Source: Fidelibacterota bacterium (GTDB lineage: Bacteria > Fidelibacterota > Marinisomatia > Marinisomatales > TCS56). Taken from it: 34,463 bases of DNA. This document shows positions 1,606 to 33,196 of this stretch, one piece after another (position 1 is the stretch's first letter; every line of letters begins with the position of its first letter). The position numbers were made by a program, and so were the translations under genes. The notes under the pieces are model-generated. The model saw only the letters and a list, made by a program, of their open reading frames with translations. It did no database searches and was not told the origin of the DNA. The stretch lies in the NCBI GenBank assembly GCA_043822705.1, contig JBDRBK010000133.1, positions 1 to 34,463 on the forward strand. Direction: 5' to 3'.

Positions 1606-1692
1606 ATGGCAAAGCTCATAAAAATGAGTGAACTTTATGGGGTCCATTCATTTGAGCAACTTAGCATGAAAGTGACGGGGAGAACCAAAAAC

Positions 1693-4683
1693 ATGACCGG
1701 AAACCGACCCAATCAGGGTAAATCGGCCGCACACGACGGCCGAAGTGTATCCGGTTTTGTCTGTCTGATCGCCCTGTTGCTCCTGCTGGCGGCCGGCTGT
1801 GATTTCCAGAGTCCGGCCGATTTCGAGACACCAACCTGGTACATGGACCTGACCATACCGCTGGTACAGGAACGCTATCCGTTCAGCAATATGGTCAATG
1901 GCGAGGAGATTACCGTCACCGACGATTCCCTGGGGATGCAGGTCGTTTTCGACGATTCGCTGCCGGGTGTTTCGATCGATCCCAGCTATCTGCAGATTCA
2001 ACTCAACCAGAATATTGCCTTCAGTCAGGACCCGGTGTATGCGCCGGATATGGATTTTTCCTTTGATACGGTGCTGACGGTGGAAATTCCATTCGCCCCC
2101 AACGGGGAGTTCCTGGACGTCAGCGGCGCCACCTTCACGGTGCCATCGGCCAGCGATCATGATATCCTGGCCAGCCTGTGGAATGCCATCGCCGCCGCTT
2201 TCGATACGACGATTATCCTTGATATCGATATTCCCCAGGTCGATGAATCGGATTTGCCGGAATTCATCGCCAGCATCGAAGCGATCGAGATCGTCGCCGA
2301 CTCCGATAGCGACTCCAGCCTGTTCCAATCGACCATTATTAACAATGGTCTGCCAACGGCAGTCAAAGATATTGAATTCAGCCTTTCCACCGATACCAGC
2401 AGCCCGCCGGATACCCTGGCACGGCATGTCAAAGACCGCCTGCTCAAGGACAGTACCTATTCCGAATATACTCTGCTGGGCGACAGCCAGTTGGGCACGC
2501 GTATCCGCATGACCGTCGGCTTCAGCCTGGAAGAGGAGACGGTGCTCGATACGATTACGATCAAGGCCGATGATTCGGTGAAGGTCAACCTGTCGTTTCG
2601 TATTCGGATCGCCGGTATCGACCAGGCGGTGGTGCAGATTGTCGAATACGACCTGGCGCCGGAAATCGATCCGGTTTCGTTTCCCTCCGATATTGAAATT
2701 TTTTCCGGTGTTTTCACCGATCCTTCTCCGCCCTTCAGCACCACCAACGAAATCCGGGTCACGAATCTGCGCAGCACGTTTCTATTCGATATCAATTTTT
2801 CAATGAATTTCCGCAATTTCCTGCCACCGGAGGGAGAAGACACGGTCAAGGTGGAGACGGTACTCAGCCGCAGTGCCCCGGCCTATGCCAGAACATTCGA
2901 CGTGGACGGTTACCGTTTCGCCAATCCGGATGACACTACCAAGGCCATGTCTGCCATGGATATTGCCGTCTCGGCGGTAATTCCCGCCCAGACCGCCACG
3001 ATTCCCCTGGACGGCAGCGAATTCGGGCGGCTGACCCTGGGAGTCGGCATTGATTCCCTGCATTTCGAATCCCTGAAAGCCAATCTGGTACGGGAATTTC
3101 CGTCGGTTTCCCAGGAAATGACCGGTATGCCGCGCGGTTTCACGGGAATGGCCTTTACCGATGTCAAGATCGAAATCACGATGCTGAACCAGATTCAATT
3201 GCCGGTGTTCCTGGATATCGATATGATCGGCGTGAATGTCTTCGGCGATTCGATGCTGGTGGGTATCAGTTCAAATCTGGGTACCCCGACCTCCAGCAGC
3301 GACACGATCAAAACGGTCATCCGCCTCAGCCGCGACGGGACGACCACGATCGTTTACGATTCACCCGGCGCCGTAACCTACGATCCGGCCGACAGCGTGA
3401 CCGTGGCCCCCGGTCCCGGTGAATCCAATATTGTCGATCTGCTTTCCTTCAACCCGGAAACGATGGTCTTCAGCTCTTCCGCCAAGATCGACGGCCGTGG
3501 AACCATCACAATCGGCGCCGCGATCTGGGGCAGCTTCCGGCTGATCGCGCCCTTTGAAGTCCGCATGGCCCCGATGACCTTCATTCCGGTCAACGAATCG
3601 CCGATCGAGGAGTGGGACTATGAAATGCGCAATAGAATTCGCAGCGCACTGCGCAGTTCCAGCACCGTGGCCCGGGTCGTCAACAGCTTCCCGGTCGGCG
3701 GTGAGATTTCAATGTTGCTGTCCAACCAGGCCTACTTCCCGCTGGACCTGAGCCAGGAGAGCCTCGACAGTCTGGCGGTGGCGATGGGCTATGAGCCGTC
3801 CAACGGCGACAGCATCTACTACGTTTCGGAATGTGCCGCCATCGATCCGGCGCTTGATTCCACGATTTATATTTTCGATCTGATGTCCGATTTCAGCGAA
3901 TGTACCGACGGCGTGGTTTATTTGGTCCGCAGTACCGGTAGTGGCGTCGATACCCTGATCGCCTACGTTGACACGCTGCTGAGCATTGTGCTGCCGGACC
4001 CGGAATTGAACAATTATGATTCGGACCTGAATGACGAACCACGGTTGGTGGGGCAGCCCGGCGATTATACCTCGGCCAGCATTTTGACACCGGAAACGAT
4101 CCGTCTGCTGACCAGTCCCGGCCAGCATTTCACGGCGCCGCGGATTCACCTGAACGGGTCGCCGATCGATCCGGTTTCCGGCGACACCCTGCCGGTTTTT
4201 ATATCACTGGAAGATTATATCGATATCAAGTCCTATATGACATTTGAGATCAGCAGTACCGGAGTCATGGAACCGGCGCCACCGGAACTGGTGCTGACTT
4301 ATCCCAACGGTGGCGAAGTAATCAATGTACTCAGCCCGATTATCATCCGCTGGAAGACCTTCGGCAAAGTAAAGAAAGTTGATCTGGACTACTCGATCGT
4401 CAGCAATCCGGATATTGAGGATGAAGAGGACTGGACGCCGCTGGAATCGAACTGGATCGCCGTCGCCAATGTTGATTCCTTTGTCTGGAACGCCGCCACT
4501 GTCATTCAGGATATTCCCGGCGCCCAACGCGATTCTGTCCGTATCCGCGTCTCCGCCACCGGTTCCGACGCCACCGACATGAGCGGCTGGTATTTCACAC
4601 TGATGGAGGTTTTACGCTCGGTCGTCGTCCGCGAGGCCGTGGAACCGCCTGTGATTAACAAACCCACGAAAGACCGGCGTTGA
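1693..4683 (+). CDS. Large acidic, beta-rich lipoprotein of unknown function with a C-terminal PNGGE-type Ig-like domain
   Basis: ORF 1606-4683. ATG 1693 preferred (GGGAGA at 1678-1683; the 1606 ATG abuts the terminator). Hydrophobic signal ends in lipobox LAAGC (Cys codon 1798-1800). C-terminal LTYPNGGE...IRW...VDLDYS...FVW...RIRVS resembles the PNGGE/Kre9-like Ig fold. Start position uncertain. Confidence 0.75.
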   Translation: MTGNRPNQGKSAAHDGRSVSGFVCLIALLLLLAAGCDFQSPADFETPTWYMDLTIPLVQERYPFSNMVNGEEITVTDDSLGMQVVFDDSLPGVSIDPSYLQIQLNQNIAFSQDPVYAPDMDFSFDTVLTVEIPFAPNGEFLDVSGATFTVPSASDHDILASLWNAIAAAFDTTIILDIDIPQVDESDLPEFIASIEAIEIVADSDSDSSLFQSTIINNGLPTAVKDIEFSLSTDTSSPPDTLARHVKDRLLKDSTYSEYTLLGDSQLGTRIRMTVGFSLEEETVLDTITIKADDSVKVNLSFRIRIAGIDQAVVQIVEYDLAPEIDPVSFPSDIEIFSGVFTDPSPPFSTTNEIRVTNLRSTFLFDINFSMNFRNFLPPEGEDTVKVETVLSRSAPAYARTFDVDGYRFANPDDTTKAMSAMDIAVSAVIPAQTATIPLDGSEFGRLTLGVGIDSLHFESLKANLVREFPSVSQEMTGMPRGFTGMAFTDVKIEITMLNQIQLPVFLDIDMIGVNVFGDSMLVGISSNLGTPTSSSDTIKTVIRLSRDGTTTIVYDSPGAVTYDPADSVTVAPGPGESNIVDLLSFNPETMVFSSSAKIDGRGTITIGAAIWGSFRLIAPFEVRMAPMTFIPVNESPIEEWDYEMRNRIRSALRSSSTVARVVNSFPVGGEISMLLSNQAYFPLDLSQESLDSLAVAMGYEPSNGDSIYYVSECAAIDPALDSTIYIFDLMSDFSECTDGVVYLVRSTGSGVDTLIAYVDTLLSIVLPDPELNNYDSDLNDEPRLVGQPGDYTSASILTPETIRLLTSPGQHFTAPRIHLNGSPIDPVSGDTLPVFISLEDYIDIKSYMTFEISSTGVMEPAPPELVLTYPNGGEVINVLSPIIIRWKTFGKVKKVDLDYSIVSNPDIEDEEDWTPLESNWIAVANVDSFVWNAATVIQDIPGAQRDSVRIRVSATGSDATDMSGWYFTLMEVLRSVVVREAVEPPVINKPTKDRR

Positions 4684-6107
4684 AGCGCTACCTGATCAGA
4701 CTGGCAATGGTCGGCGGACTGATCTTAGCGGCCTGCTTCGGTCAGACCAAACGTGACGCCCGCGCCGTCGGACTAGCCGGCTCCTATGGTACCGTCGCCG
4801 ATGGGATTTTCGCGGTCGGTTACAATCCGGCCTTACTGGCGCTGCAACAGGACAAACCCTTCATGCTGCAACTGGTAGGTCTGGATTACGGGCTGGTCAG
4901 CAATTATATCTCATTGGCTAATCTCAATGCCCTCAGCGGCGATACGCTTTCGACCGACGAAAAAGATTTGATCCTGAATAATCTTGATAAAAGCGGCGGT
5001 CTGCGAATATTTACCGACCTGCATCTGCCGTTGCCGCTGCTGAACTACGCCTCCGGGAACATGGCCCTGACTTCCAACACGATCATCGTCGGCGATTTGA
5101 TCATACCGACCGGCATCCTGAGCCTGCTGCTGAACGGCAATCCCGTGGGCGAAGACCTCGATATGACCTTGAAATTTGATCTGTTGGGTGTGACCGAATA
5201 CGGTTTTTCCTTTGCCATTCCATCGGACGATTTCGCCTGGGGAATGACCATCAAATATCTGCAGGGACTGTTTTATTTCGGCCTCGATCCCGAATTCAGC
5301 AATGCCACTCTGGTTACCGATACTACCGCCCTGTATGGCAGCGGTACATACTATTTTCGGCAGGGGATTGGCGGCAGCGGTCTGGGGCTGGACCTGGGTT
5401 TTGTTACCCAGGAAATCGCCGGCTGGCGGATCGGCGTTTCCATGATCAACGCCCTCGGCACGATCAGTTGGAACAAGCCCAGTCTGATCAAGGATCTGAT
5501 GTCCGGCGGCGACAATATCTATGGCACGCGCGACGACCTGTTCCATATTGTCTGGGCCGGTACGGCCCTGAATGATTCGATGGCGGTAAGCTACGAATAT
5601 ACGATCGATACCCTGAATGCCCAGACCATGTCCCAGGGCGATATTTTCTATTCCAATCCGCCTGACGAACAGGTGGTTTACGACTTGACCGAGGACGGCA
5701 AACTGCGCCAATTCACGACGCGCTATCCGGCGCTCTTTCGTTTTTCTGTTTCAAAACGGTTCCCCGATCTACTGGTCGTTTCCGATCTGGTGGCCGGTTT
5801 CGAGGACCGCTTCTTCGCCCGCGATCGCTGGCGCTGGTCGATCGGCACCGAGATTCTCCGGAATCCCACCGTGCCGATCCGTTTCGGTTTTTCCTGGGCC
5901 GGCGGTGATTTCAAGCGGCTGGGGATGGGTATCGGCATCCACAAGGGACCGGTGATTTTTGATTTTGGTCTGGCATTTAAAAACGGAGTCTGGATTCACA
6001 CCATGAAGGGTCTGGATCTTTCACTGGGGGTGACCCTGACCAGTTTCCGCGGCCGCAAGGATAAAACGCCGGAACCGGCGGAAGAACCGGTAGTCCCGCC
6101 CCAATAA
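4680..6107 (+). CDS. Putative outer-membrane beta-barrel (FadL/TraF/PorV-like, DUF5723-like)
   Basis: TTG start overlaps the upstream TGA (TTGA). Signal peptide, then ARAVGLAGSYGTVADGIFAVGYNPALLA, which resembles the N-terminal plug motif of FadL-superfamily barrels. Amphipathic strands include GLGLDLGF, WRIGVS, IRFGFSW and FDFGLAF. Confidence 0.65.
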   Translation: MKRYLIRLAMVGGLILAACFGQTKRDARAVGLAGSYGTVADGIFAVGYNPALLALQQDKPFMLQLVGLDYGLVSNYISLANLNALSGDTLSTDEKDLILNNLDKSGGLRIFTDLHLPLPLLNYASGNMALTSNTIIVGDLIIPTGILSLLLNGNPVGEDLDMTLKFDLLGVTEYGFSFAIPSDDFAWGMTIKYLQGLFYFGLDPEFSNATLVTDTTALYGSGTYYFRQGIGGSGLGLDLGFVTQEIAGWRIGVSMINALGTISWNKPSLIKDLMSGGDNIYGTRDDLFHIVWAGTALNDSMAVSYEYTIDTLNAQTMSQGDIFYSNPPDEQVVYDLTEDGKLRQFTTRYPALFRFSVSKRFPDLLVVSDLVAGFEDRFFARDRWRWSIGTEILRNPTVPIRFGFSWAGGDFKRLGMGIGIHKGPVIFDFGLAFKNGVWIHTMKGLDLSLGVTLTSFRGRKDKTPEPAEEPVVPPQ

Positions 6108-22624: not shown

Positions 22625-23824
22625 TCAGGAATTTTCCGGTTCAGCCGCGGCTGAATCGACGGAATCAGCGTCCGGTTCGTCGTCGCCGGTATCGTCCTCC
22701 GCTTCTTCTTTTTCTTCTTCCTCGGCTTCCAGCTCTTCTTCGTCCTTCCGTTCCAGCAGATTATCATCGTCGGATTTTTTCTTGTAAATGACAAACATCA
22801 GCGTCTCGCCGACCGACAAGATTGATAAACCGTAGGCTACGATTGAGGCGAATAACAGGAACAGAAAGATCGCCACGATTACGCCGGCAATCGCCTGTAC
22901 CACCGGAATATCACCGGCGGCGGCCGGGAACAGACAACATAAGCCACACCCGCCGCAACCGCTACAACCGCCACTGCAAAAGCTGGGGAAAACGATCTGG
23001 CTGGCATACCCGACGATATTCGTCAGCTTGGCACCCATTCCCATGAACCATTCGGCGCCAAAGACGATGTTGATTAATTTGTAGCCACCGTACCAGAACA
23101 GGCCGAAAATGTAGACACTCAGATATCCCAGGGGCAGCAGGATCAGATTGTACAACAAAATCCGCCAGGGCTGGGACCAGGTCAGGGAATAGCTCTGGAA
23201 CACTGTTCCCATCGTGTCTTCTTCATAAGCGCCGACAATGGCCGGTGTATAGATGAAGGAAGTGATCAGTACGACGGCGGTGTAAACGGTGAATACCGCG
23301 CCGAAAAAGTAGAACAGATAGGGGAGGGCGAACAGGAATTCTCCCACATACGGGATTTTTCCGAATAGACTGAAAACCGCTGCCATGAACAGGAACAGGA
23401 CGATTATCACGATGATGCTGAAAGAACCGAAAACGACCGGGTGCCAGTGTTTCTTGACATATTTCCAGGCATCGCCGGAGGAATAAAATTCATCGCCTTT
23501 AAGCTGTTTGTAGGTAACCCGGGCGACGGCGGTGCAGGCCAGATTAATCGTCAGGAACCAGATAATGATACCGATCCAGTATACAAGTTGTGCGTACCAG
23601 GGACCGCAACCGGTGGCATACAGGCAGGGGTACAAACCGAATTTTTCCCAGACGGTGGCGAACGAATAGCCCGCCAGCGCTAGCGCGATATTGGTCAACA
23701 CCCAGTAGGCCACCCAGCCGCTGAGCAGGCCTAACAGGAAAATCAGAATTTTCTTGCCGCTGAGCGCCAGACGCGGGGCGCGGCATACATCTCTTACATC
23801 GAAGTACAATTTCATCGGACTCAT
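22625..23824 (-). CDS. Hypothetical polytopic membrane protein with a Cys/Gly cluster and acidic C-terminal tail
   Basis: About six hydrophobic segments, motif CSGGCSGCGGCGLCC, and tail DEEELEAEEEEKEEAEDDTGDDEPD. AAGGAG SD before ATG 23824. Confidence 0.75.
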   Translation of the reverse strand: MSPMKLYFDVRDVCRAPRLALSGKKILIFLLGLLSGWVAYWVLTNIALALAGYSFATVWEKFGLYPCLYATGCGPWYAQLVYWIGIIIWFLTINLACTAVARVTYKQLKGDEFYSSGDAWKYVKKHWHPVVFGSFSIIVIIVLFLFMAAVFSLFGKIPYVGEFLFALPYLFYFFGAVFTVYTAVVLITSFIYTPAIVGAYEEDTMGTVFQSYSLTWSQPWRILLYNLILLPLGYLSVYIFGLFWYGGYKLINIVFGAEWFMGMGAKLTNIVGYASQIVFPSFCSGGCSGCGGCGLCCLFPAAAGDIPVVQAIAGVIVAIFLFLLFASIVAYGLSILSVGETLMFVIYKKKSDDDNLLERKDEEELEAEEEEKEEAEDDTGDDEPDADSVDSAAAEPENS

Positions 23825-23836
23825 TTGATACTCCTT

Positions 23837-24628
23837 TTAATTCTCCAGACGAACATGATCGACCCAGGTGTCGGTTTTGGTAATCGATTTGATATTTTTG
23901 GCCACAGCCAATGCGGCGGAATAGCTTTCAAAACTGCCGACCCTGACCCGGTACCAGGTTTCACTGGTTTCCTTGAAGTAGGCTTTCTGAATATAGGAAT
24001 CGAATCCGGCATCGATCAGTTTCTCGGCAGCCATCTGGGCATCTTCAAAAGTGCGCTTGGCTGAAACTTGGATCGTGTACCGATATGGATCCTTGGGAAT
24101 GGTGGCGCCAGGCACCGGTCTGGCCGGTTTCTTCGGCGTGACCCGGGTCGTTTTGGGGACCGACTTGACCGGCTGTGGTGTCGTCACCTTTGCCGCTGTC
24201 GGTAGGGGCTTTACGGCAGCTACGTAGCTGTCTTCTACCGTATCTTCGATGGTATCTTCGGTTTTGATTATTTCCTCTCGATCAGTAGCCCCGTCCGTAG
24301 CGGCCAGCGCGGCGATCGTGAACTCCTGAACCGATATTTCATCACCGAATTCATCGGCGACAACCACCTTAAAAACGAAGGTCCCGGGAAAATCGGGAAT
24401 GAAGGTCATTTTCTGATCGCCGGCGGAAAATTCCAGATCATCAACGGTAATCTTCGATGCATCCGGCTGCTGAGTGATCGACCAGGTTAAGTCCAGGTTA
24501 CCGCTGTCTTCCGGTATTTCGGCTTCGACTGACTGGTATTCGCCGACGATTCCCTCCTGAACGTCCTCGCCGCAGCCAGCCAATAAAAACAGCCCAACCA
24601 CGATTGTAAGAAAGTGTTTTATACGCAT
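23837..24628 (-). CDS. SPOR-domain lipoprotein
   Basis: Lipobox LLAGC, an Ig/PKD-like region (WSITQQP...FIPDFPGTFVFKVVV), a Pro/Thr/Lys linker, and a C-terminal SPOR domain (YTIQVSA...A....L...G...WYRVRVGSF). Confidence 0.85.
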   Translation of the reverse strand: MRIKHFLTIVVGLFLLAGCGEDVQEGIVGEYQSVEAEIPEDSGNLDLTWSITQQPDASKITVDDLEFSAGDQKMTFIPDFPGTFVFKVVVADEFGDEISVQEFTIAALAATDGATDREEIIKTEDTIEDTVEDSYVAAVKPLPTAAKVTTPQPVKSVPKTTRVTPKKPARPVPGATIPKDPYRYTIQVSAKRTFEDAQMAAEKLIDAGFDSYIQKAYFKETSETWYRVRVGSFESYSAALAVAKNIKSITKTDTWVDHVRLEN

Positions 24629-24659: not shown

Positions 24660-25082
24660 TCAAGCACTGTGAATTTGACTGGGAGCGAAGAAAAATGCAA
24701 TTTCTTTTTCGGCGTTTGTGTCGGAATCTGATCCATGAATGGCATTATTTTGAACACTTTCGGCAAAATCCCGGCGGATCGTGCCGGCGGCGGCCTCGGC
24801 CGGGTTGGTAGAACCGATGAATTTGCGGAAATTTTCCACGGCATTATCGTGTTCAATCACCATCGGCATACAGGGACCGGAGGTCATGAAGGCCACCAGA
24901 TCGTTAAAAAAGGGACGCTCTCTGTGAACGGCGTAAAAGTCCTGTGCCTGCTCCACGCTCAGTTGCTCCAGCCGGGCGGCGACGATTTTGAAACCACCGC
25001 TTAAAATCCGGTCGATGATCTTGCCGGCATATTTATTACCGATTGCGTCAGGTTTGATGATTGCCAATGTGCGATTTCCCAC
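24660..25082 (-). CDS. ndk: Nucleoside diphosphate kinase
   Basis: RTLAIIKPDA, FYAVH.ERPFF, GTIR and NAIHGSDS (catalytic His). GTG start. Confidence 0.98.
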   Translation of the reverse strand: MGNRTLAIIKPDAIGNKYAGKIIDRILSGGFKIVAARLEQLSVEQAQDFYAVHRERPFFNDLVAFMTSGPCMPMVIEHDNAVENFRKFIGSTNPAEAAAGTIRRDFAESVQNNAIHGSDSDTNAEKEIAFFFAPSQIHSA

Positions 25083-25110
25083 TATTTGTTCCTGCCTTTT
25101 CCGTTATTAA

Positions 25111-25992
25111 TTAGTTGCTGTTGTTCAGAACCCGGTGCATGGCCGCGCCGATTTCCGCCGGACTGGTAACGACCGTGATGCCGGCCTGTTTCAGGGCGGC
25201 CATTTTATCGGCGGCCGTGCCCTTGCCGCCGGCAATGATTGCGCCGGCATGGCCCATGCGGCGGCCCGGCGGTGCGGTCTGTCCGGCGATAAACGCCACG
25301 ATCGGTTTCGTGAAATTATTAGCGACCACCCATTGTGCCGTATCCTCTTCCGCCGTACCGCCGATTTCACCGATCAGCACGACACCGGTCGTGTCCGGAT
25401 CGTCTTTAAAAAAGCTCAGCATGTCAATGAAACTGGTGCCGATGATCGGATCGCCGCCGATCCCGATCGATGTCGACTGCCCCAACCCGAAGGCGCCCAG
25501 TTGATGCACCGCCTCGTAAGTCAGCGTGCCGGAACGGGAAACCACACCGATCGGTCCTGGTTTGTGAATAAAGCCCGGCATGATTCCGACTTTGGCCTGC
25601 CCGGGAGAAATAATCCCGGGACAGTTGGGTCCGATCAGCCGCAGCGGTTTGTCGCAGAGATATTTTTTTACCTGCACCATGTCACTGGTGGGGATTCCTT
25701 CGGTGATGCAGACCGCCAGGTCCAGGCCGGCCTCGGCCGCTTCCATGATCGCTTCCGCGGCGAAAGCCGGCGGCACGAATATTACCGTAGTGTTGGCGCC
25801 CGTCGCCCGTTGGGCGTCTTCGACAGTGTTGAATACCGGCACGCCCAGGGCCGTCTGGCCGCCTTTGCCGGGCGTGACGCCACCGACAATATTCGTTCCG
25901 TATTCCTGCATCTGTTCGCCGTGGAAACTACCTTCCTGCCCGGTGATGCCCTGGATGATCAGGCGTGTGTGCTTGCCGACCAGAACGCTCAT
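25111..25992 (-). CDS. sucD: Succinyl-CoA ligase alpha subunit
   Basis: [25 protein letters not shown] and RMGHAGA (phospho-His). Confidence 0.97.
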
Positions 25993-27161
25993 TTTACACC
26001 TCCCCGGGCGGCCCGAACCGCTTTTTCCGCCGCTTCCTGCAGACTGCCGGCCACGATGAATTTCAACGGTGATTCCGCCAGAATCACACTTGCTTCCTGC
26101 GCATTGGTACCCTCCAGACGGATAATCACCGGGATTTTCACCTTGACTGTCTCCAGTGCTTCGATGATTCCATTGGCGACCCGGTCGCAGCGGACGATGC
26201 CGCCGAAAATATTGACCAGGATGGCTTTCACGTTGGGATCCGCCAGGATCAGGCGAAAGCCGTTGGCCACCGTCTCGGAATTGGCCACGCCGCCGACATC
26301 CAGAAAATTGGCCGGTTCGCCACCGTTGAGCTTGATGATATCCATGGTGGCCATCGCCAGACCGGCGCCGTTGACCATGCAGCCCACATTCCCATCCAGC
26401 TTGATGTAATTCAGGCTGAACTTGCTGGCGGCGGCCTCGGCGGGGTCTTCTTCGCTGACATCGCGTAATTCTTTTATTTCCGGATGACGGTAAAGTCCGT
26501 TATCGTCGAAATTGATTTTGGCATCGAGGGCGATGACACGGTTATCGGTCGTGATGACCAGGGGATTGATTTCGATTAGCGTGCAATCCTTGGCGGCGAA
26601 GACTTTCCACAATGCTTTGAAAATTGCCACGGCCGCCTTGATCTGAGTGTCTTCCAGCCCCAGGTCGAAAGCCAGTTTACGGGCCTGGAAAGTCATTAAC
26701 CCGGTGGCGGGATTGATCCGTTCCATGATGATTTTTTCCGGCGTCTCGCGGGCGACTTTCTCGATTTCCATTCCACCGGCGGTGGATACCATAAAAACAT
26801 ATTCACCAGCTACCCGGTCCAGTACGATTCCGGCGTACAGTTCGCGGGCGATGTCGACTCCGGATTCAATCAGCAGACGTTGCACTTGTTTGCCGGCCGG
26901 TCCGGTCTGGTGCGTGACCAGTTGCATACCCAGCATCCGCCGGGCGAAAGTGCGGACTTCCGTTTCATTGTGAGCCAGTTTGACGCCGCCGCCTTTGCCG
27001 CGGCCACCGGCATGGATTTGGGCTTTGACAACCGCCAGTTCACCGGACAGTTCGTTATAGACATGGACCGCTTCATCGATGCTGAAGGCCGGATAGCCTT
27101 CCGGAACGGCGACACCGAACTGGCGGAATATTTCTTTAGCCTGATACTCGTGAATCTTCAA
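25989..27161 (-). CDS. sucC: Succinyl-CoA ligase beta subunit
   Basis: [39 protein letters not shown] and [13 protein letters not shown] start with GGAGG SD. Confidence 0.97.
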
Positions 27162-27175
27162 ATTGCCTCCCTCTG

Positions 27176-28120
27176 TCAGGACTTGACGATGGTGGTACCC
27201 GCCTCACCGTTGATTGCCTTAGCTACGTTGGGAATCGATGTAATCACCACTTTCTCGCCAAATCGGGAAAGAAAATATAAAGCCGCTTCTATCTTCGGTG
27301 CCATGCTGCCTTTCTGAAAATGACCGGCTTTCAGGTAATTTTCGGCTTCCGGCATGGTCATGCGAGGCACAGAGACCTGGTCCGGTTTGTTATAATTCAG
27401 ATAGACCGCATCGATATCGGTGATGATCCATAATTCTTCGGCATGGATGATCCGTCCCAGCAGCGCCGCTGCTAGATCCTTGTCGATAACGGCGTCCAGG
27501 CCTTCCAACCGGCCGTCCGGCTCGTAAAATACGGGAATTCCGCCACCGCCGGCCGCCAGTACGATCGTGCCCCGTTCCACCAGGGCCCGCATACTTTTAC
27601 CATGCATGATGTATTTGGGATGGGGACTAGGCACGACCTGACACCATTCGCCCGGATTCTTTTCCCGGATCGTCCAGTTGAACTTCGCCGCCAGTTCGCG
27701 GGCCTGGTCTTCGGGGTAGGTCCGGCCGATGAATTTGGTGGGATTGGCGATCGACGGGTCATCCCGGTCCACCACCACCTGGGTCACCAGCGTCACCACC
27801 TCACGGTCGACATCGGCGGCTTGAAGGGCATTCTGCAGCGACTGCTGGATCATGTAGCCGATCGTGCCCTGGGTGCCGGCGACGCAGACTCCCAGGGGCA
27901 GTGGCGCGATCGCTTCGTGGGTTAATTCCATGCGCAATAATTCATCCCCGACCTGGGGACCGTTGCCGTGGGTCAGACACAGGTTATAGTCCAGTTCGAC
28001 GAAATGCATGACGGCGCTCAGACTTTCGCGGGTGTGGGCGAATTGCTGATAAATCGTTCCGGATTCGCCTTTGGGGGAAAGCGCGTTTCCCCCAAAGGCG
28101 ATGATTGCCGTCCTGGCCAT
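27176..28120 (-). CDS. arcC: Carbamate kinase
   Basis: AFGGNAL, THGNGPQVG, TQGTIGY, PTKFIG, VVPSP.P, GGGGIPV, AVIDKD and GSMAPK. Confidence 0.95.
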   Translation of the reverse strand: MARTAIIAFGGNALSPKGESGTIYQQFAHTRESLSAVMHFVELDYNLCLTHGNGPQVGDELLRMELTHEAIAPLPLGVCVAGTQGTIGYMIQQSLQNALQAADVDREVVTLVTQVVVDRDDPSIANPTKFIGRTYPEDQARELAAKFNWTIREKNPGEWCQVVPSPHPKYIMHGKSMRALVERGTIVLAAGGGGIPVFYEPDGRLEGLDAVIDKDLAAALLGRIIHAEELWIITDIDAVYLNYNKPDQVSVPRMTMPEAENYLKAGHFQKGSMAPKIEAALYFLSRFGEKVVITSIPNVAKAINGEAGTTIVKS

Positions 28121-29436
28121 TACTTCAGAAAGGCTGCCAGTGCATCCACCAGGTTCGGCCGGCCGATTTCCTGCAGGTCGTAGGTCACCCGGACTGATGG
28201 CTGTTTAATCTTGCAGACCCGGCGCAGGTCGATCGGCGTGCCGATAATGACCACATCGCAGTCGCATTTGGCGATCGTCGCTTCCAGGTCCTTCATCTGT
28301 TTTTCACCGTAACCCATGGCCGGTAGCAGCAGGCCGATATCGGGATATTTTTCGAAAGTGTCGGTAATCGTTCCAACGGTGAATTCCCGCGGGTCGACGA
28401 CTTCGGCCGCGCCGAATTTTTCGGCGGCTACGGTGCCGGCACCGAATTTCATTTCACCATGGGTCAGGGTCGGACCGTCTTCCACCACCAGCGCTTTTTT
28501 CCCGAGGATCAGGGACGAGTTCTCGACGGTAATCGGCGATGCGGCATCGATGATGATCGCATCCGGGTTGGCTTCGCGGATGTTCCAACGCACTTCCTCG
28601 ATATCCTGCGAATCGGCGGTGTCGATCTTATTGATGATCACCACATCGGCCATCAGCAGGTTGGTTTCGCCAGGATAGTAAGTCAGTTCGTGGCCCGGCC
28701 GGTGGGGGTCGACCACGACAATATTCAGGTCCAGCTCATAGAACGGCAGGTCGTTATTACCGCCGTCCCAGAGGATGATGTCCGCTTCCTTTTCCGCTTC
28801 CCGCAGGATCGCGGCATAATCCACACCGGCATAGATAATCGTGCCGGTGGTGATATGCGGCTCGTATTCCTCCATCTCTTCGATGGTGCATTTGTGCTTC
28901 TTTAGGTCGTCGATGGAGGCGAAGCGCTGGACTTTCTGGGCGACCAAGTCGCCGTAGGGCATGGGATGACGGATGGCGACGACTTGCTTGCCGGCGTCCT
29001 TCAGTATCTGGGCCACGCGGCGGGTAGTCTGACTCTTCCCGCAGCCGGTGCGGACGGCGCCGATCCCGATCACCGGTTTGGTCGATTTAATCATCGTTTG
29101 TTTAGCCCCCAGCATTTTGAAATGGGCGCCGGTGGCGATTACCCGCGAGGCTTTATGCATGACCATTTCATGGGGAATATCGGAATAGGCAAAGACGACT
29201 TCGACCACCTGGTGACGTTCGATCAAAACTTCCAGGTCCGATTCATCGTGGATGTTAATCCCGGCGGGATAGAGCTTACCGGCCAGCTCGGCGGGGTAGA
29301 CCCGGCCATCGATATCGGGAATCTGTGTGGCGGTAAAGGCCACTACTTCGTATTGGGGGTTGTCCCGGTAAATCACATTAAAATTGTGAAAATCGCGCCC
29401 GGCGGCCCCCATAATCAGTGTCTTAATAGGTTTCAT
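28120..29436 (-). CDS. arcE: Probable arginine synthetase ArcE (family often annotated as cyclic 2,3-diphosphoglycerate synthase-like or predicted GTPase)
   Basis: IMGAAGRDFHNFN, VAFTATQIPDI, P-loop AVRTGCGKSQT, RHPMPYGDL, EEYEPH, WDGGNND, EDGPTLTHG and LPAMGY. TAATG overlap with arcC. ATG 29436 with GGAG SD. The family call is solid; the function is inferred from homology and context. Confidence 0.75.
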   Translation of the reverse strand: MKPIKTLIMGAAGRDFHNFNVIYRDNPQYEVVAFTATQIPDIDGRVYPAELAGKLYPAGINIHDESDLEVLIERHQVVEVVFAYSDIPHEMVMHKASRVIATGAHFKMLGAKQTMIKSTKPVIGIGAVRTGCGKSQTTRRVAQILKDAGKQVVAIRHPMPYGDLVAQKVQRFASIDDLKKHKCTIEEMEEYEPHITTGTIIYAGVDYAAILREAEKEADIILWDGGNNDLPFYELDLNIVVVDPHRPGHELTYYPGETNLLMADVVIINKIDTADSQDIEEVRWNIREANPDAIIIDAASPITVENSSLILGKKALVVEDGPTLTHGEMKFGAGTVAAEKFGAAEVVDPREFTVGTITDTFEKYPDIGLLLPAMGYGEKQMKDLEATIAKCDCDVVIIGTPIDLRRVCKIKQPSVRVTYDLQEIGRPNLVDALAAFLK

Positions 29437-29474
29437 GAGTACTCCATTGGAAAATTTTTGGTTTATCATCTCTG

Positions 29475-29525
29475 GATGCGAACCCCGATCCGGAACCCGG
29501 ACCGGCGGTAGCGCACCGCTGTGCG
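29475..29525 (-). promoter_or_regulatory. Candidate structured 5' leader RNA of arcE-arcC
   Basis: An 18-bp GC-rich imperfect hairpin (29517-29475) plus an overlapping alternative hairpin CGCAC-agcg-GUGCG (29525-29512) in an otherwise AT-rich intergenic region. Confidence 0.45.
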
Positions 29526-29594
29526 GTTGTTGAAGGGCCGGTTATTTAAAACCGAATTCCTGACGGAAGGACAATAATTCGCAGATCAGTTTGA

Positions 29595-31229
29595 TCATTT
29601 TTCCGCCATGAAGGGATAACGATAGTCGGTGGGTGGAACAAAAGTTTCCTTGATCGTCCGCTGCGAAACCCAGCGCAGCAGATTGAACATCGAACCGGCC
29701 TTGTCATTGGTACCCGAGGCCCGGCCGCCGCCGAATGGCTGCTGCCCGACCACGGCGCCGGTGGGTTTATCGTTGATATAGAAATTGCCGGCGGCGTGGG
29801 TCAATGCGCCCGCCGCTTCGATCACGGCCTGGCGATCGTTGGCAAAAACACAGCCGGTCAAAGCGTAGGGTGAGGTCCGGTCGACCAGCCGCAAAGTTTC
29901 GGACCACTTGTTCGAATCATAGACATAGATCGTCAGGACGGGACCGAAAATTTCGTCCTGCATCGTTTTGAACTGGGGATCGGTGGTAACGATCGTAGTC
30001 GGCTCGATGAAATAGCCTTCCGAGTCGTCGTAATTGCCACCGGTGATGATAGTGGCCGCAGCAGAATTGCGGGCATAGTCAATATAGGCGGTGATGGAAT
30101 CGAACGCGCCCTTATCGATGACGGCATTCATGAAATTACTGAAATCCTCCACATCGCCCATTCTGATGTCATTGACCTGTTCGACGTAACGTTCGCGAAT
30201 TTCATCCCAGATTACGTTCGGGATGTAGGCACGCGAGAGAGCCGAACATTTTTGTCCCTGGTATTCGAAAGCGCCGCGGACCATGGCCGTTGCCAGCCCG
30301 GCGATGTCGGCCGATTCATGGGCGATGCAAAAGTCCTTACCGCCGGTTTCGCCGACGATCCGCGGGTAGCTTTTATACCTGTTGATGTTATTTCCCAGTG
30401 ACCGCCACATACTTTGGAAAACGCCCGTGGAACCGGTGAAATGAATACCGGCCAGGTCGGGACTATCCAGCACCACCGGACCGACTTTGGAACCGGGACC
30501 CGGTATGAAATTGACCACACCGTCGGGCAGTCCGGCCTTCTTGAAAAGCTGCATCAGGTAATAGGCCGGGTACACGGCGCTGGACGCCGGTTTCCACAGA
30601 GAGACATTGCCCATCAGGGCCGGGGCCGTCGGCAGATTTCCGGCGATCGAGGCGAAGTTGAAGGGCGTTACGGCGAAGATGAAGCCTTCCAGCGGCCGAT
30701 GTTCCATCATATTCCAGGTGCCGTTGGGCGAATACAGTGGTTGCTGCTCGAAGATCTCCTGCGCATACATGGTGTTGAAATCGTAAAAATTGACCAGTTC
30801 GCAGGCGGAATCGATCTCGGCCTGGTAGGCGTTTTTACTCATGTTCAGCATGGTGGCGGCATTGACGGTCTGCCGGTAGGGACCGGCCAGCAGCGAGGCC
30901 ATTTTCCGGAAGATCGCCACCCGATCTTCCCAAGGCATTTTCGACCAGGTTTTCCAGGCCTGCCGTGCGGCAGCGATGGCTTCCGCTACTTCTTTTTCAC
31001 CAGCCAGATGATATTTAGCGATTGTTGTTTTATGATTATGTGGAAGTACGCAATCAGCTGTTTTTCCGGTCCGGACTTCCTTCCCGCCGATAATCAACGG
31101 TATTTCAATTTCGGTGGACCGCAGTTCGGCCAGCTTCGATTTCAGTTCCGCCTTCTCCGGGGAGCCGGGTGCATATTCCTTGATCGGCTCGTTCACTGCT
31201 TTGGGGACGGAAACTTTAATATTCGGCAT
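29595..31229 (-). CDS. pruA: L-glutamate gamma-semialdehyde (P5C) dehydrogenase
   Basis: ALDH4-type motifs NEPI..Y.PGS.E, QAEID, PFNF, FTGST, GETGGKDF, FEYQGQKCSA, EIFGP and GQQPFGGGRASGTNDK. Confidence 0.95.
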   Translation of the reverse strand: MPNIKVSVPKAVNEPIKEYAPGSPEKAELKSKLAELRSTEIEIPLIIGGKEVRTGKTADCVLPHNHKTTIAKYHLAGEKEVAEAIAAARQAWKTWSKMPWEDRVAIFRKMASLLAGPYRQTVNAATMLNMSKNAYQAEIDSACELVNFYDFNTMYAQEIFEQQPLYSPNGTWNMMEHRPLEGFIFAVTPFNFASIAGNLPTAPALMGNVSLWKPASSAVYPAYYLMQLFKKAGLPDGVVNFIPGPGSKVGPVVLDSPDLAGIHFTGSTGVFQSMWRSLGNNINRYKSYPRIVGETGGKDFCIAHESADIAGLATAMVRGAFEYQGQKCSALSRAYIPNVIWDEIRERYVEQVNDIRMGDVEDFSNFMNAVIDKGAFDSITAYIDYARNSAAATIITGGNYDDSEGYFIEPTTIVTTDPQFKTMQDEIFGPVLTIYVYDSNKWSETLRLVDRTSPYALTGCVFANDRQAVIEAAGALTHAAGNFYINDKPTGAVVGQQPFGGGRASGTNDKAGSMFNLLRWVSQRTIKETFVPPTDYRYPFMAEK

Positions 31230-31359: not shown

Positions 31360-32334
31360 TTAAGTCTGTACCAATAAAAATATTTCATCCAGGATGGCAT
31401 TCATGTAGTCGGCGTCCCGGGCGGTCACCAGGCGGTGACGAAATCCGGCCGCTCCCGGAAAGCCCTTCAGGTAGTAGCCGAAATGTTTCCGCATCAGGTT
31501 GGGACCGGCCACCGGTCCGCGGTAATCGACCTGCATTTGCAGATGCCGGCGGCACAGTTCCAGGCGATCAGACAACGATGGGGTAGTAGTAAGATCACTG
31601 TTGTTCCAGGCCTCCGACAATTCCCGGAAAATAAAGGGATTGCCCAGGGCCGCCCGGCCGATCATGACACCGTCGCAACCGGTCTCGGCCAGCATTCGTT
31701 GCATATCCGCGGCCGAACGAATATCGCCGTTGCCGATCACCGGTATATTAATATAGGACTTCAGGTCCCGGATCAGGGACCAATCCGCCTGGCCGTCATA
31801 ATTCTGTTTGGTGGTGCGCGGGTGCAGGGTAATGGCCTTGACGCCCAGTTTTTCCAGCAGTCCGCCGGCTTCCAGCGCCACGATCGAATTTTTATCCCAA
31901 CCCGAGCGCATCTTGACCGTCACCGGCACTTTCTTGACGGCACCGACCACCGCTGCCGTTATCTCATCCATCAGGCAAAGATCGCGCAGGGCGGCCGAGC
32001 CGGCCCCTTTTTTGGTGACTTTCGGCACCGGGCAGCCATAGTTGATGTCGATGATGTCAGGTTTGAAGCGGTTCACCAGCATCCGCGCCGCATCGGCCAT
32101 GACCTGCGGATCGTCGCCGAAGATTTGAATGCCGATCGGTCGTTCGAATTCGCTGAAGCGAACCATGTCCAGTGTTTTGGCGTTTTCGCGGATGATGCCG
32201 TCGGCAGAAACAAATTCCGAATACACGACACCGGCACCGAATTCCTTGCAGAGGATTCGAAACGGATAGTCGCTGACACCGGCCATCGGTGCCAGAAAAA
32301 CAGGTGTTTTGATATTCAGTCGGCCGATTTGCAT
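31360..32334 (-). CDS. dusB: tRNA-dihydrouridine synthase B
   Basis: LAPMAGVSD, QIFG, DINYGCPV, VTVKMRSGW, LHPRT, GNGDI and MIGRAALGNP. Confidence 0.93.
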   Translation of the reverse strand: MQIGRLNIKTPVFLAPMAGVSDYPFRILCKEFGAGVVYSEFVSADGIIRENAKTLDMVRFSEFERPIGIQIFGDDPQVMADAARMLVNRFKPDIIDINYGCPVPKVTKKGAGSAALRDLCLMDEITAAVVGAVKKVPVTVKMRSGWDKNSIVALEAGGLLEKLGVKAITLHPRTTKQNYDGQADWSLIRDLKSYINIPVIGNGDIRSAADMQRMLAETGCDGVMIGRAALGNPFIFRELSEAWNNSDLTTTPSLSDRLELCRRHLQMQVDYRGPVAGPNLMRKHFGYYLKGFPGAAGFRHRLVTARDADYMNAILDEIFLLVQT

Positions 32335-33166: not shown

Positions 33167-33196
33167 AAATGCCCGGTATTACCGGGCATTTCTTTT
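33167..33196 (+). terminator. Rho-independent terminator after rpmB
   Basis: Perfect 11-bp inverted repeat AAATGCCCGGT-att-ACCGGGCATTT followed by CTTTT. Confidence 0.85.

Follow-up and report, generated by a model that had tools for sequence, protein, structure and literature searches.

We analyzed a 34,463-nucleotide (nt) stretch of DNA (hereafter the window), contig JBDRBK010000133.1 of the Fidelibacterota assembly GCA_043822705.1, and in particular its minus-strand gene arcE at positions 28120-29436, which encodes a 438-residue orthologue of arginine synthetase, the ATP-forming arginine deiminase ArcE. In the reading that we favor, and regard as probable, this protein degrades arginine to citrulline with formation of ATP, and its gene, together with a short upstream open reading frame (uORF), forms an exchangeable cassette within an old gene block of mixed function, the same slot being held in relatives by an arginine deiminase (ADI)-like gene, arcA. 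The genome in question, G000, is 3.34 Mb in size with 93% completeness and 6% contamination, and the window is its contig C133; throughout, G, L, C, f and g denote genomes, loci, G000 contigs, families and genera, respectively.

ArcE, its reaction, its complementary distribution with ADI across genomes and its low similarity to cyclic 2,3-diphosphoglycerate (cDPG) synthase were defined in PMC11032458, which delimits homologues by full-length similarity to Thermococcus kodakarensis TK2200 at E < 1e-100. Thermococcus orthologues served as proxies for TK2200: the pattern of its forward primer gave no match, and that of its reverse primer retrieved five loci from Thermococcus metagenome-assembled genomes (MAGs), all of which encode relatives of the G000 protein. 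The cluster of these relatives includes a T. peptonophilus protein, with both ends being those encoded by the TK2200 primers. The G000 protein is 65.7% identical to the T. peptonophilus protein over 437 residues and 64.5-67.2% identical to all 15 listed Thermococcus members of the cluster (584-620 bits, E 0.0), which places it within the published threshold by proxy, the Thermococcus orthologues standing for TK2200. It has no NCBIfam family match and a weak match to Pfam cobW; its gene starts with ATG, preceded by GGAG.

Databases name homologues of this protein cDPG synthase or GTPase, and a fold search with its predicted structure (model pLDDT 84.8) returned cDPG synthase first (8oru; TM score 0.48, 15% identity), followed by LpxK, including 4ehy. 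The idea that the protein is itself a cDPG synthase or GTPase is nonetheless barely credible. Solved cDPG synthases aligned with it at a best E of 8.3e-6 and over residues 225-333 only, so that no full-length similarity to a characterized cDPG synthase was seen; Thermococcus ArcE orthologues bear the same database names and are equally remote from the solved enzymes; identity is 15% to cDPG synthase versus 66% to ArcE orthologues; and ADI substitutes for the protein in the same slot. The cDPG synthetase name has thus been wrongly transferred, to true ArcE orthologues as well, and the likeness to cDPG synthetases (8oru, 8ork, 9sxb) is that of a distantly related P-loop fold. A P-loop fold resembling LpxK (4EHY) combined with low similarity to cDPG synthase is what the model displays, and the order of fold matches agrees with that in PMC11032458. 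A preliminary description of the window, made from its letters, had called the protein ArcE rather than a cDPG synthase (CpgS), and the 65-67% identity to Thermococcus orthologues against 15% to cDPG synthase by fold upholds that call. Judged by its sequence, the product of 28120-29436 is an ArcE orthologue, and it would be expected to catalyze Arg + ADP + Pi -> citrulline + NH3 + ATP.

To place arcE in its phylum (Marinisomatota/SAR406), we examined 201 genomes, of which 137 contain arcE and 13 contain ADI. The two occurred together in one genome against 8.9 expected (related genomes not being independent), and in that genome ADI is encoded at another locus. In all 12 ADI genomes that lack arcE, the ADI gene directly follows pruA, i.e., it occupies the exact slot of arcE; it starts no more than 35 nt past the pruA stop codon in 10 of the 12 loci, and arcC follows it in 11. 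The slot ADIs match TIGR01078/PRK01388 and solved ADIs. ADI motifs, checked against an alignment with solved ADIs in the PDB, were present in the aligned stretches (HLD and the C-terminal Cys in 12/12, FxRD in 11/12), in keeping with the pentein fold family and its Asp/Glu/His/Cys catalytic motifs. The slot proteins are arginine deiminase-like and divergent. Their replacement of ArcE at one position gives indirect support for an arginine-to-citrulline role of the latter.

The exchange recurs between close relatives. Genera g24, g26 and g28 each contain arcE and arcA congeners, which are set apart by this one gene and share other local traits (arcC is lost in g26 and plsX in g28). When arcA and arcE loci of congeners were compared, nucleotide similarity broke off at the pruA stop codon and returned at arcC or sucC in all four pairs; DNA of a control arcE/arcE pair aligns right through arcE. 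Eight genes that lie outside the cluster were used to build a tree (56 rows; 14 were dropped for short loci), with a 25-row subset used for tests. On the 25-row tree, grouping of the five f10 ADI genomes as one clade was rejected (p-AU 0.0003), and a minimum of six arcE/arcA changes was required. The arcE tree otherwise tracks families, the exceptions being G203, an f10 genome with an f1-type arcE, and G184, which stands apart from its congeners. GC content does not separate arcA loci of f10 (0.36-0.44) from arcE loci (0.40-0.50). Homologous recombination through pruA and arcC would be the mechanism of the swap. A decayed arcA fragment and a broken arcC lie between pruA and sucC in G016 (L090:8392-8971), and we read this locus as a slot being emptied. 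No report of recurrent in-place ArcE/ArcA exchange was found in the searched literature, the scope of which excludes most subscription papers; it is this exchange that is new, the pathway itself being known.

A separate pattern was observed in f12, whose genomes are of ~1 Mb: OTC (ornithine carbamoyltransferase) and carB were found in five of five genomes (G019, G033, G076, G100, G107) and arcC in the two tested, and arcE, arcA and argG in none of 18. Use of citrulline, or a third arginine-to-citrulline enzyme, are candidate readings.

The 158-nt gap between pruA and arcE, passed over in the preliminary description, contains an 18-codon uORF (29598-29542, minus strand), the ATG of which overlaps the pruA stop codon and which occurs once in G000. 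It was found in 31 of 41 arcE loci of the order (28 by strict criteria and three by profile; one further locus is cut off), in none of the 12 ADI loci and in none of six empty-slot loci. The uORF is always 18 codons long and ends in Q-x-F-G-F-x; in 28/28 strict uORFs, Q13, F15, G16 and F17 are invariant over all synonymous codons, and third-position differences number 2220 versus 1032 and 971. The uORF shows coding-type conservation and is restricted to arcE loci. It overlaps the pruA stop codon in 16 of 26 loci and lies within 3 nt of it in four more; where DNA parts it from pruA, it remains 55-105 nt before arcE. In G203, arcE and the uORF are both of f1 type and pruA is of f10 type. The overlap with pruA and this co-typing support a single mRNA for pruA and arcE, and mark the uORF plus arcE as the exchanged cassette; we infer that one mRNA extends from pruA to arcC.

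Conservation at the amino acid level and a fixed position before arcE are the properties of a leader peptide, and we consider the uORF a candidate leader or arrest peptide, or a small partner protein of ArcE. Its most likely regulatory role would be metabolite-dependent stalling of ribosomes, which would gate the reversible ArcE. Like SpeFL (ornithine) and TnaC (tryptophan), it is short, has a conserved C-terminal sequence and immediately precedes a gene of amino acid catabolism. Unlike them, it was found with no conserved terminator or anti-Shine-Dalgarno (anti-SD) element and is usually coupled to the stop codon of the preceding gene rather than being first on its mRNA, and the likeness is one of description, not of sequence. 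In G000, the spacer between pruA and arcE folds at z -2.0, a fold that is not conserved.

A further proposal, which we hold tentatively and consider doubtful, is that bacteria of the SAR406 group maintain a hot-swap slot within an ancient operon of central metabolism and switch there, time and again, between two solutions to the same reaction. In one, a reversible and ATP-conserving ArcE would be controlled by a nascent peptide of a new class (Q-x-F-G-F-x-stop) that senses arginine or citrulline; in the other, an irreversible deiminase without such a gate would be directly coupled to pruA. If this were true, sister species would amount to a natural experiment on what keeps ArcE from being universal, and the peptide would represent a new metabolite-sensing ribosome arrest motif.

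The steps flanking ArcE were sought in the rest of the genome, where the preliminary description had pointed to OTC, rocD and 2-oxoglutarate oxidation as genes to look for. G000 encodes an OTC over its cut-off (C106), an ornithine aminotransferase just below its cut-off (C13; 372.7 versus 378.4) and three 2-oxoacid:ferredoxin oxidoreductase (OFOR) sets on contigs other than the window, together with proline dehydrogenase and two glutamate dehydrogenases (GDHs), none of them on the window contig. Every other arginine-to-succinate step is thus supported by predicted genes in G000, with four of these steps (OTC, ornithine aminotransferase, GDH and OFOR) encoded outside the cluster, on other contigs. 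Near-identical aminotransferase regions on C155 and C10 (L073, L074) fit the 6% contamination estimate. The reported lack of arcA in the window extends to the 93% complete genome, in which no deiminase was found and the sole PF02274 match is a 256-residue DDAH-like protein. No arginase was found in G000, its two ureohydrolases being an agmatinase and a HutG-like protein. Nor was a sucA-type dehydrogenase found in G000, in which 2-oxoglutarate is assumed to be oxidized by OFORs instead of SucA. There was no DcuC/YfcC-family transporter match in this genome (other antiporter families were not searched). With ArcE, OTC and carbamate kinase present and ADI absent, G000 has the gene content of the arginine synthetase pathway. 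It also carries argG, carAB, and an argH cut by a contig end, so that neither arginine nor carbamoyl phosphate has to come from ArcE, which points to catabolism as the likely direction of ArcE in G000. PMC11032458 argues likewise for genomes of such gene content.

In the scheme that we propose, ArcE would convert Arg + ADP + Pi to citrulline and ATP, OTC would yield ornithine and carbamoyl phosphate from citrulline, and ArcC would form ATP from the latter. Ornithine would be turned into glutamate semialdehyde by ornithine aminotransferase and then into glutamate by PruA, after which GDH and an OFOR would lead to succinyl-CoA, the substrate of SucCD. The functional core would be pruA-uORF-arcE-arcC; the remainder, sucCD-ndk-SPOR-yceD-plsX-fab, would be a gene order handed down by descent, perhaps co-expressed but dispensable.

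An alternative is that the slot mainly supplies carbamoyl phosphate and ornithine (or, in reverse, arginine), the gain in ATP being secondary. It has a precedent in T. kodakarensis, where, according to PMC13260591, ArcE/ArcB supply carbamoyl phosphate and loss of arcC has little effect. Among relatives, no carB turned up in 11 of the 30 genomes carrying arcE or arcA (5/18 arcE, 6/12 arcA), and one was found in each of 11 empty-slot genomes; these gaps keep a supply role alive for the relatives. Of 41 genomes tested for OTC, 39 proved positive. Moreover, many arcE genomes lack argG, and 16 of 41 arcE loci of the order have no arcC following that gene, the remaining arcC, where read, lying in a ygeW-type cluster. 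Against these observations stand the carAB, argG, argH and local arcC of G000 itself, as well as the 12 genomes in which an irreversible ADI replaces ArcE: argG was found in none of them, which counts against ArcE making arginine there. We therefore consider a primarily supply-oriented slot distinctly improbable. The ygeW-like catabolic cluster was seen at L099-L106 (G002, G005, G009, G012, G026, G036, G006, G038), where a second carbamate kinase (~40% identity) comes after a tandem pair of carbamoyltransferases not assigned to a substrate; G000 has one transcarbamylase of this kind, which scores below every cut-off (L002).

The preliminary description had placed arcE in a unit with pruA, arcC, sucC, sucD and ndk that would harvest ATP equivalents at three steps. 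These six genes were confirmed on the minus strand, with their coordinates and families: pruA, encoding delta-1-pyrroline-5-carboxylate (P5C; glutamate-5-semialdehyde) dehydrogenase (P5CDH), at 29595-31229 (TIGR01236, 780.6 bits, cut-off 613.6); arcE; arcC, encoding carbamate kinase, at 27176-28120 (NF009007, 319.5, cut-off 266; TIGR00746, 335.9, below its cut-off of 358.25), the sole copy found in G000; sucC and sucD, for the beta and alpha subunits of succinate-CoA ligase, at 25989-27161 and 25111-25992; and ndk, for nucleoside-diphosphate kinase, at 24660-25082, the last three matching their families over cut-off. The junctions were likewise as described, i.e., a 1-nt TAATG overlap of arcE and arcC, 14 nt between arcC and sucC, and an ATGA overlap of sucC and sucD; 28 nt separate sucD from ndk.

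Such tight junctions and translational coupling favor the view that pruA-arcE-arcC-sucCD-ndk is a selected, co-regulated unit drawing three ATP equivalents from arginine, and the remnant of an ancestral operon that included korDABC. We read 82 arcE loci (42 from the order, including G000, 10 from other orders of the class and 30 from other classes), counting neighbors within fixed distance cut-offs and setting aside, gene by gene, truncated loci. P5CDH lies upstream of arcE in 52/77 loci, and arcC, sucC, ndk, the SPOR-domain gene and fabH neighbor it in 54/81, 53/81, 66/77, 65/76 and 52/72, respectively. pruA, arcC, sucC and ndk all accompany arcE in 29 of 71 loci, and the full six-gene order is found in 21/36 loci of the order, 7/9 in the rest of the class and 1/26 in other classes. 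The expected synteny thus holds across the order and class, and is rare beyond the class. The slot preceding arcE is filled by semialdehyde dehydrogenases of three different subfamilies (TIGR01236, TIGR01237 and a Zixibacteria-type aldehyde dehydrogenase, ALDH), the TIGR01237-type P5CDH sitting in the pruA position in five of five tested loci of f21, f22 and f26. In f25 and f30 (L125-L128, L144), a lon protease gene replaces pruA between dusB and arcE (typed in L125, the others having similar-sized ORFs).

Other counts tell against a selected unit, which we regard as unlikely. Where sucC is gone from the arcE locus, it is still present elsewhere in 21 of 26 genomes (G011, G026 and G064, with local sucC, being set aside), and a P5CDH-like gene, below the family cut-off and hence untyped, is unlinked from arcE in 26 of 27 genomes tested. 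The SPOR gene is retained as often as ndk, which in other classes goes with it and not with sucCD, and fabH is about as frequent as sucC and P5CDH; SPOR, yceD, plsX and fab genes, functionally unrelated, are conserved in the same block. In genomes of the order without arcE or an intact arcA, pruA-(arcC)-sucCD-ndk-SPOR is intact in six of six loci read. Linkage specific to the pathway genes, above background synteny, was not seen. With OTC, aminotransferase, GDH and OFOR genes elsewhere in G000 and pruA-sucCD-ndk surviving without arcE, the claim of a dedicated unit is not supported; what survives of the three-step proposal is the identity of ArcE, the presence of the steps and the conserved order. 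The cluster is an old gene block of mixed function, with inherited gene order and modular loss. The sucC genes in loci of the order are of two deep types (separated by a branch of 0.48) that are mixed at one position inside f10, suggesting in-place replacement of sucCD too.

Similar clusters were found among the best 80 of 581 metagenome arcE loci, many of them short. sucC was present in eight, one of which is from this order (7/79 outside it), korA(B) in 3/79 and an ALDH gene directly before arcE in 4/79. Two of the loci outside the order have arcE-arcC-sucCD-korDA(B) and one arcE-arcC-kor-ndk-yceD-plsX. Three such clusters are named Zixibacteria, in which a similar order, ALDH-arcE-arcC-sucCD-(kor), is seen, a similarity that again speaks for a selected unit. 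In Zixibacteria loci, however, a CCA-transferase-like gene splits arcC from sucC, and the ALDH is below every cut-off. This GucD-like ALDH, encoded directly before arcE in L210:4158-5651, L214, L230 and L231, is a candidate third type of glutamate-semialdehyde dehydrogenase. The gene order predates the phylum and may at one time have contained the oxidoreductase that is now missing. The block may also be under selection for co-expression.

Several observations weigh against the exchangeable-cassette reading that we favor. That arcE is linked to sucCD and kor in a second phylum as well, and preceded by three types of ALDH, suggests functional coupling beyond pure inheritance. All three slot ADIs tested scored 240-251 bits, whereas NCBIfam sets its cut-offs at 414 and 489, and with 6 of 10 forks open in the ADI tree, the swaps are given no direction. 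Mis-assembly of a MAG could account for a single locus but is less likely to explain all 12. The uORF was not found in 10 of 41 arcE loci of the order nor in any of 40 beyond it, and so is not required for ArcE. Downstream of the uORF no hairpin is conserved (z -0.3 on average over 28), and the anti-SD trend is weak, 18 of 28 being better than shuffles and five at p<=0.1, with G000 not among the five.

The gene run extends further than had been described. A SPOR-domain gene, non-metabolic, follows ndk after 31 nt (23837-24628) and, after a further 12 nt, a gene for a 399-residue membrane protein (22625-23824), both on the minus strand. The terminator placed at ~22590 was recovered as a 16-pair hairpin at 22595-22560 (minus strand), the first strong one past ndk, resembling an intrinsic terminator by consensus match only and ending the run. 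Weaker sites of 5-7 pairs lie within genes on this strand at 26818, 24930, 24398, 23448 and 22813, and the total of 26 terminator-like sites is close to that in shuffled sequences (20.0 +/- 3.7). No promoter was called ahead of pruA, in a scan that gave 14 sites in the window versus 14.4 in shuffles. Upstream, dusB (31360-32334, minus strand), 130 nt before pruA, is a member of the conserved block. The membrane protein, for which NCBIfam, Pfam and the Atlas gave no family, contains a Cys/Gly-rich stretch and an acidic tail, is conserved across the phylum and has look-alikes in Planctomycetota. Its gene is retained in the empty-slot genomes G015, G016 and G017; being without a family and persisting without arcE or arcA, it is not proposed as an arginine carrier. 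Elsewhere in the window, two large unannotated ORFs (1025 and 475 residues; 1606-6107) with an exported or outer-membrane look, by eye, follow ahcY, and a perfect 11-pair inverted repeat at 33167-33191, called as a terminator on both strands, lies in the lower-GC window end.

In situ (xenologous or non-orthologous) displacement of one gene in an operon, with neighbors and order kept, is a known phenomenon. The present case is alike in that a single gene is replaced and its neighbors stay, and differs in being recurrent, between congeners, and in exchanging an energy-conserving for a hydrolytic enzyme at the same step. With the arcABC deiminase pathway it shares the catalytic motifs of the slot ADIs in relatives and the adjoining arcC; it differs in having no arcB or arcD in the cluster and slot ADIs under cut-offs, and in G000 the unrelated ArcE would take this step. 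The T. kodakarensis ArcE (TK2200) and its ArcE-ArcB-ArcC pathway (PMC11032458, PMC13260591) are matched in G000 by ~66% full-length identity to Thermococcus orthologues, an ArcC adjoining ArcE, an OTC and no ADI found, and the mutual exclusion of ArcE and ADI across genomes in PMC11032458 is repeated in this phylum. Unlike in T. kodakarensis, arcE here belongs to a bacterium of a mesophilic-type marine phylum, has pruA and sucCD in its linkage group and a conserved uORF ahead of it, and is exchanged with arcA at the same position between congeners. The string "Marini" is absent from the supplement text of PMC11032458, and the searched literature, among the papers listed, yielded no account of a Marinimicrobia/Marinisomatota arginine deiminase or arginine synthetase and, by title, no sucCD-ndk operon paper. 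The Fidelibacter description does not mention arginine.

To our knowledge, ArcE has been assayed in one archaeon only. PMC11032458 states that its role elsewhere has yet to be evaluated and raises the question of why its distribution is not wider. The G000 ArcE adds a new bacterial member to a pathway already known, encoded within an old block of genes, and its recognition sets right a frequent mis-annotation, one that affects 137 of the 201 genomes sampled from an abundant marine phylum. A candidate regulatory peptide is tied to ArcE and not to ADI. That ArcE and ArcA have been exchanged at a single locus, precisely and more than once, provides strong contextual evidence for a bacterial ArcE doing the job of the deiminase, and the congeneric arcE/arcA pairs make the trade-off testable against data on habitat and expression, i.e., extra ATP versus irreversibility, phosphate need or carbamoyl phosphate supply.

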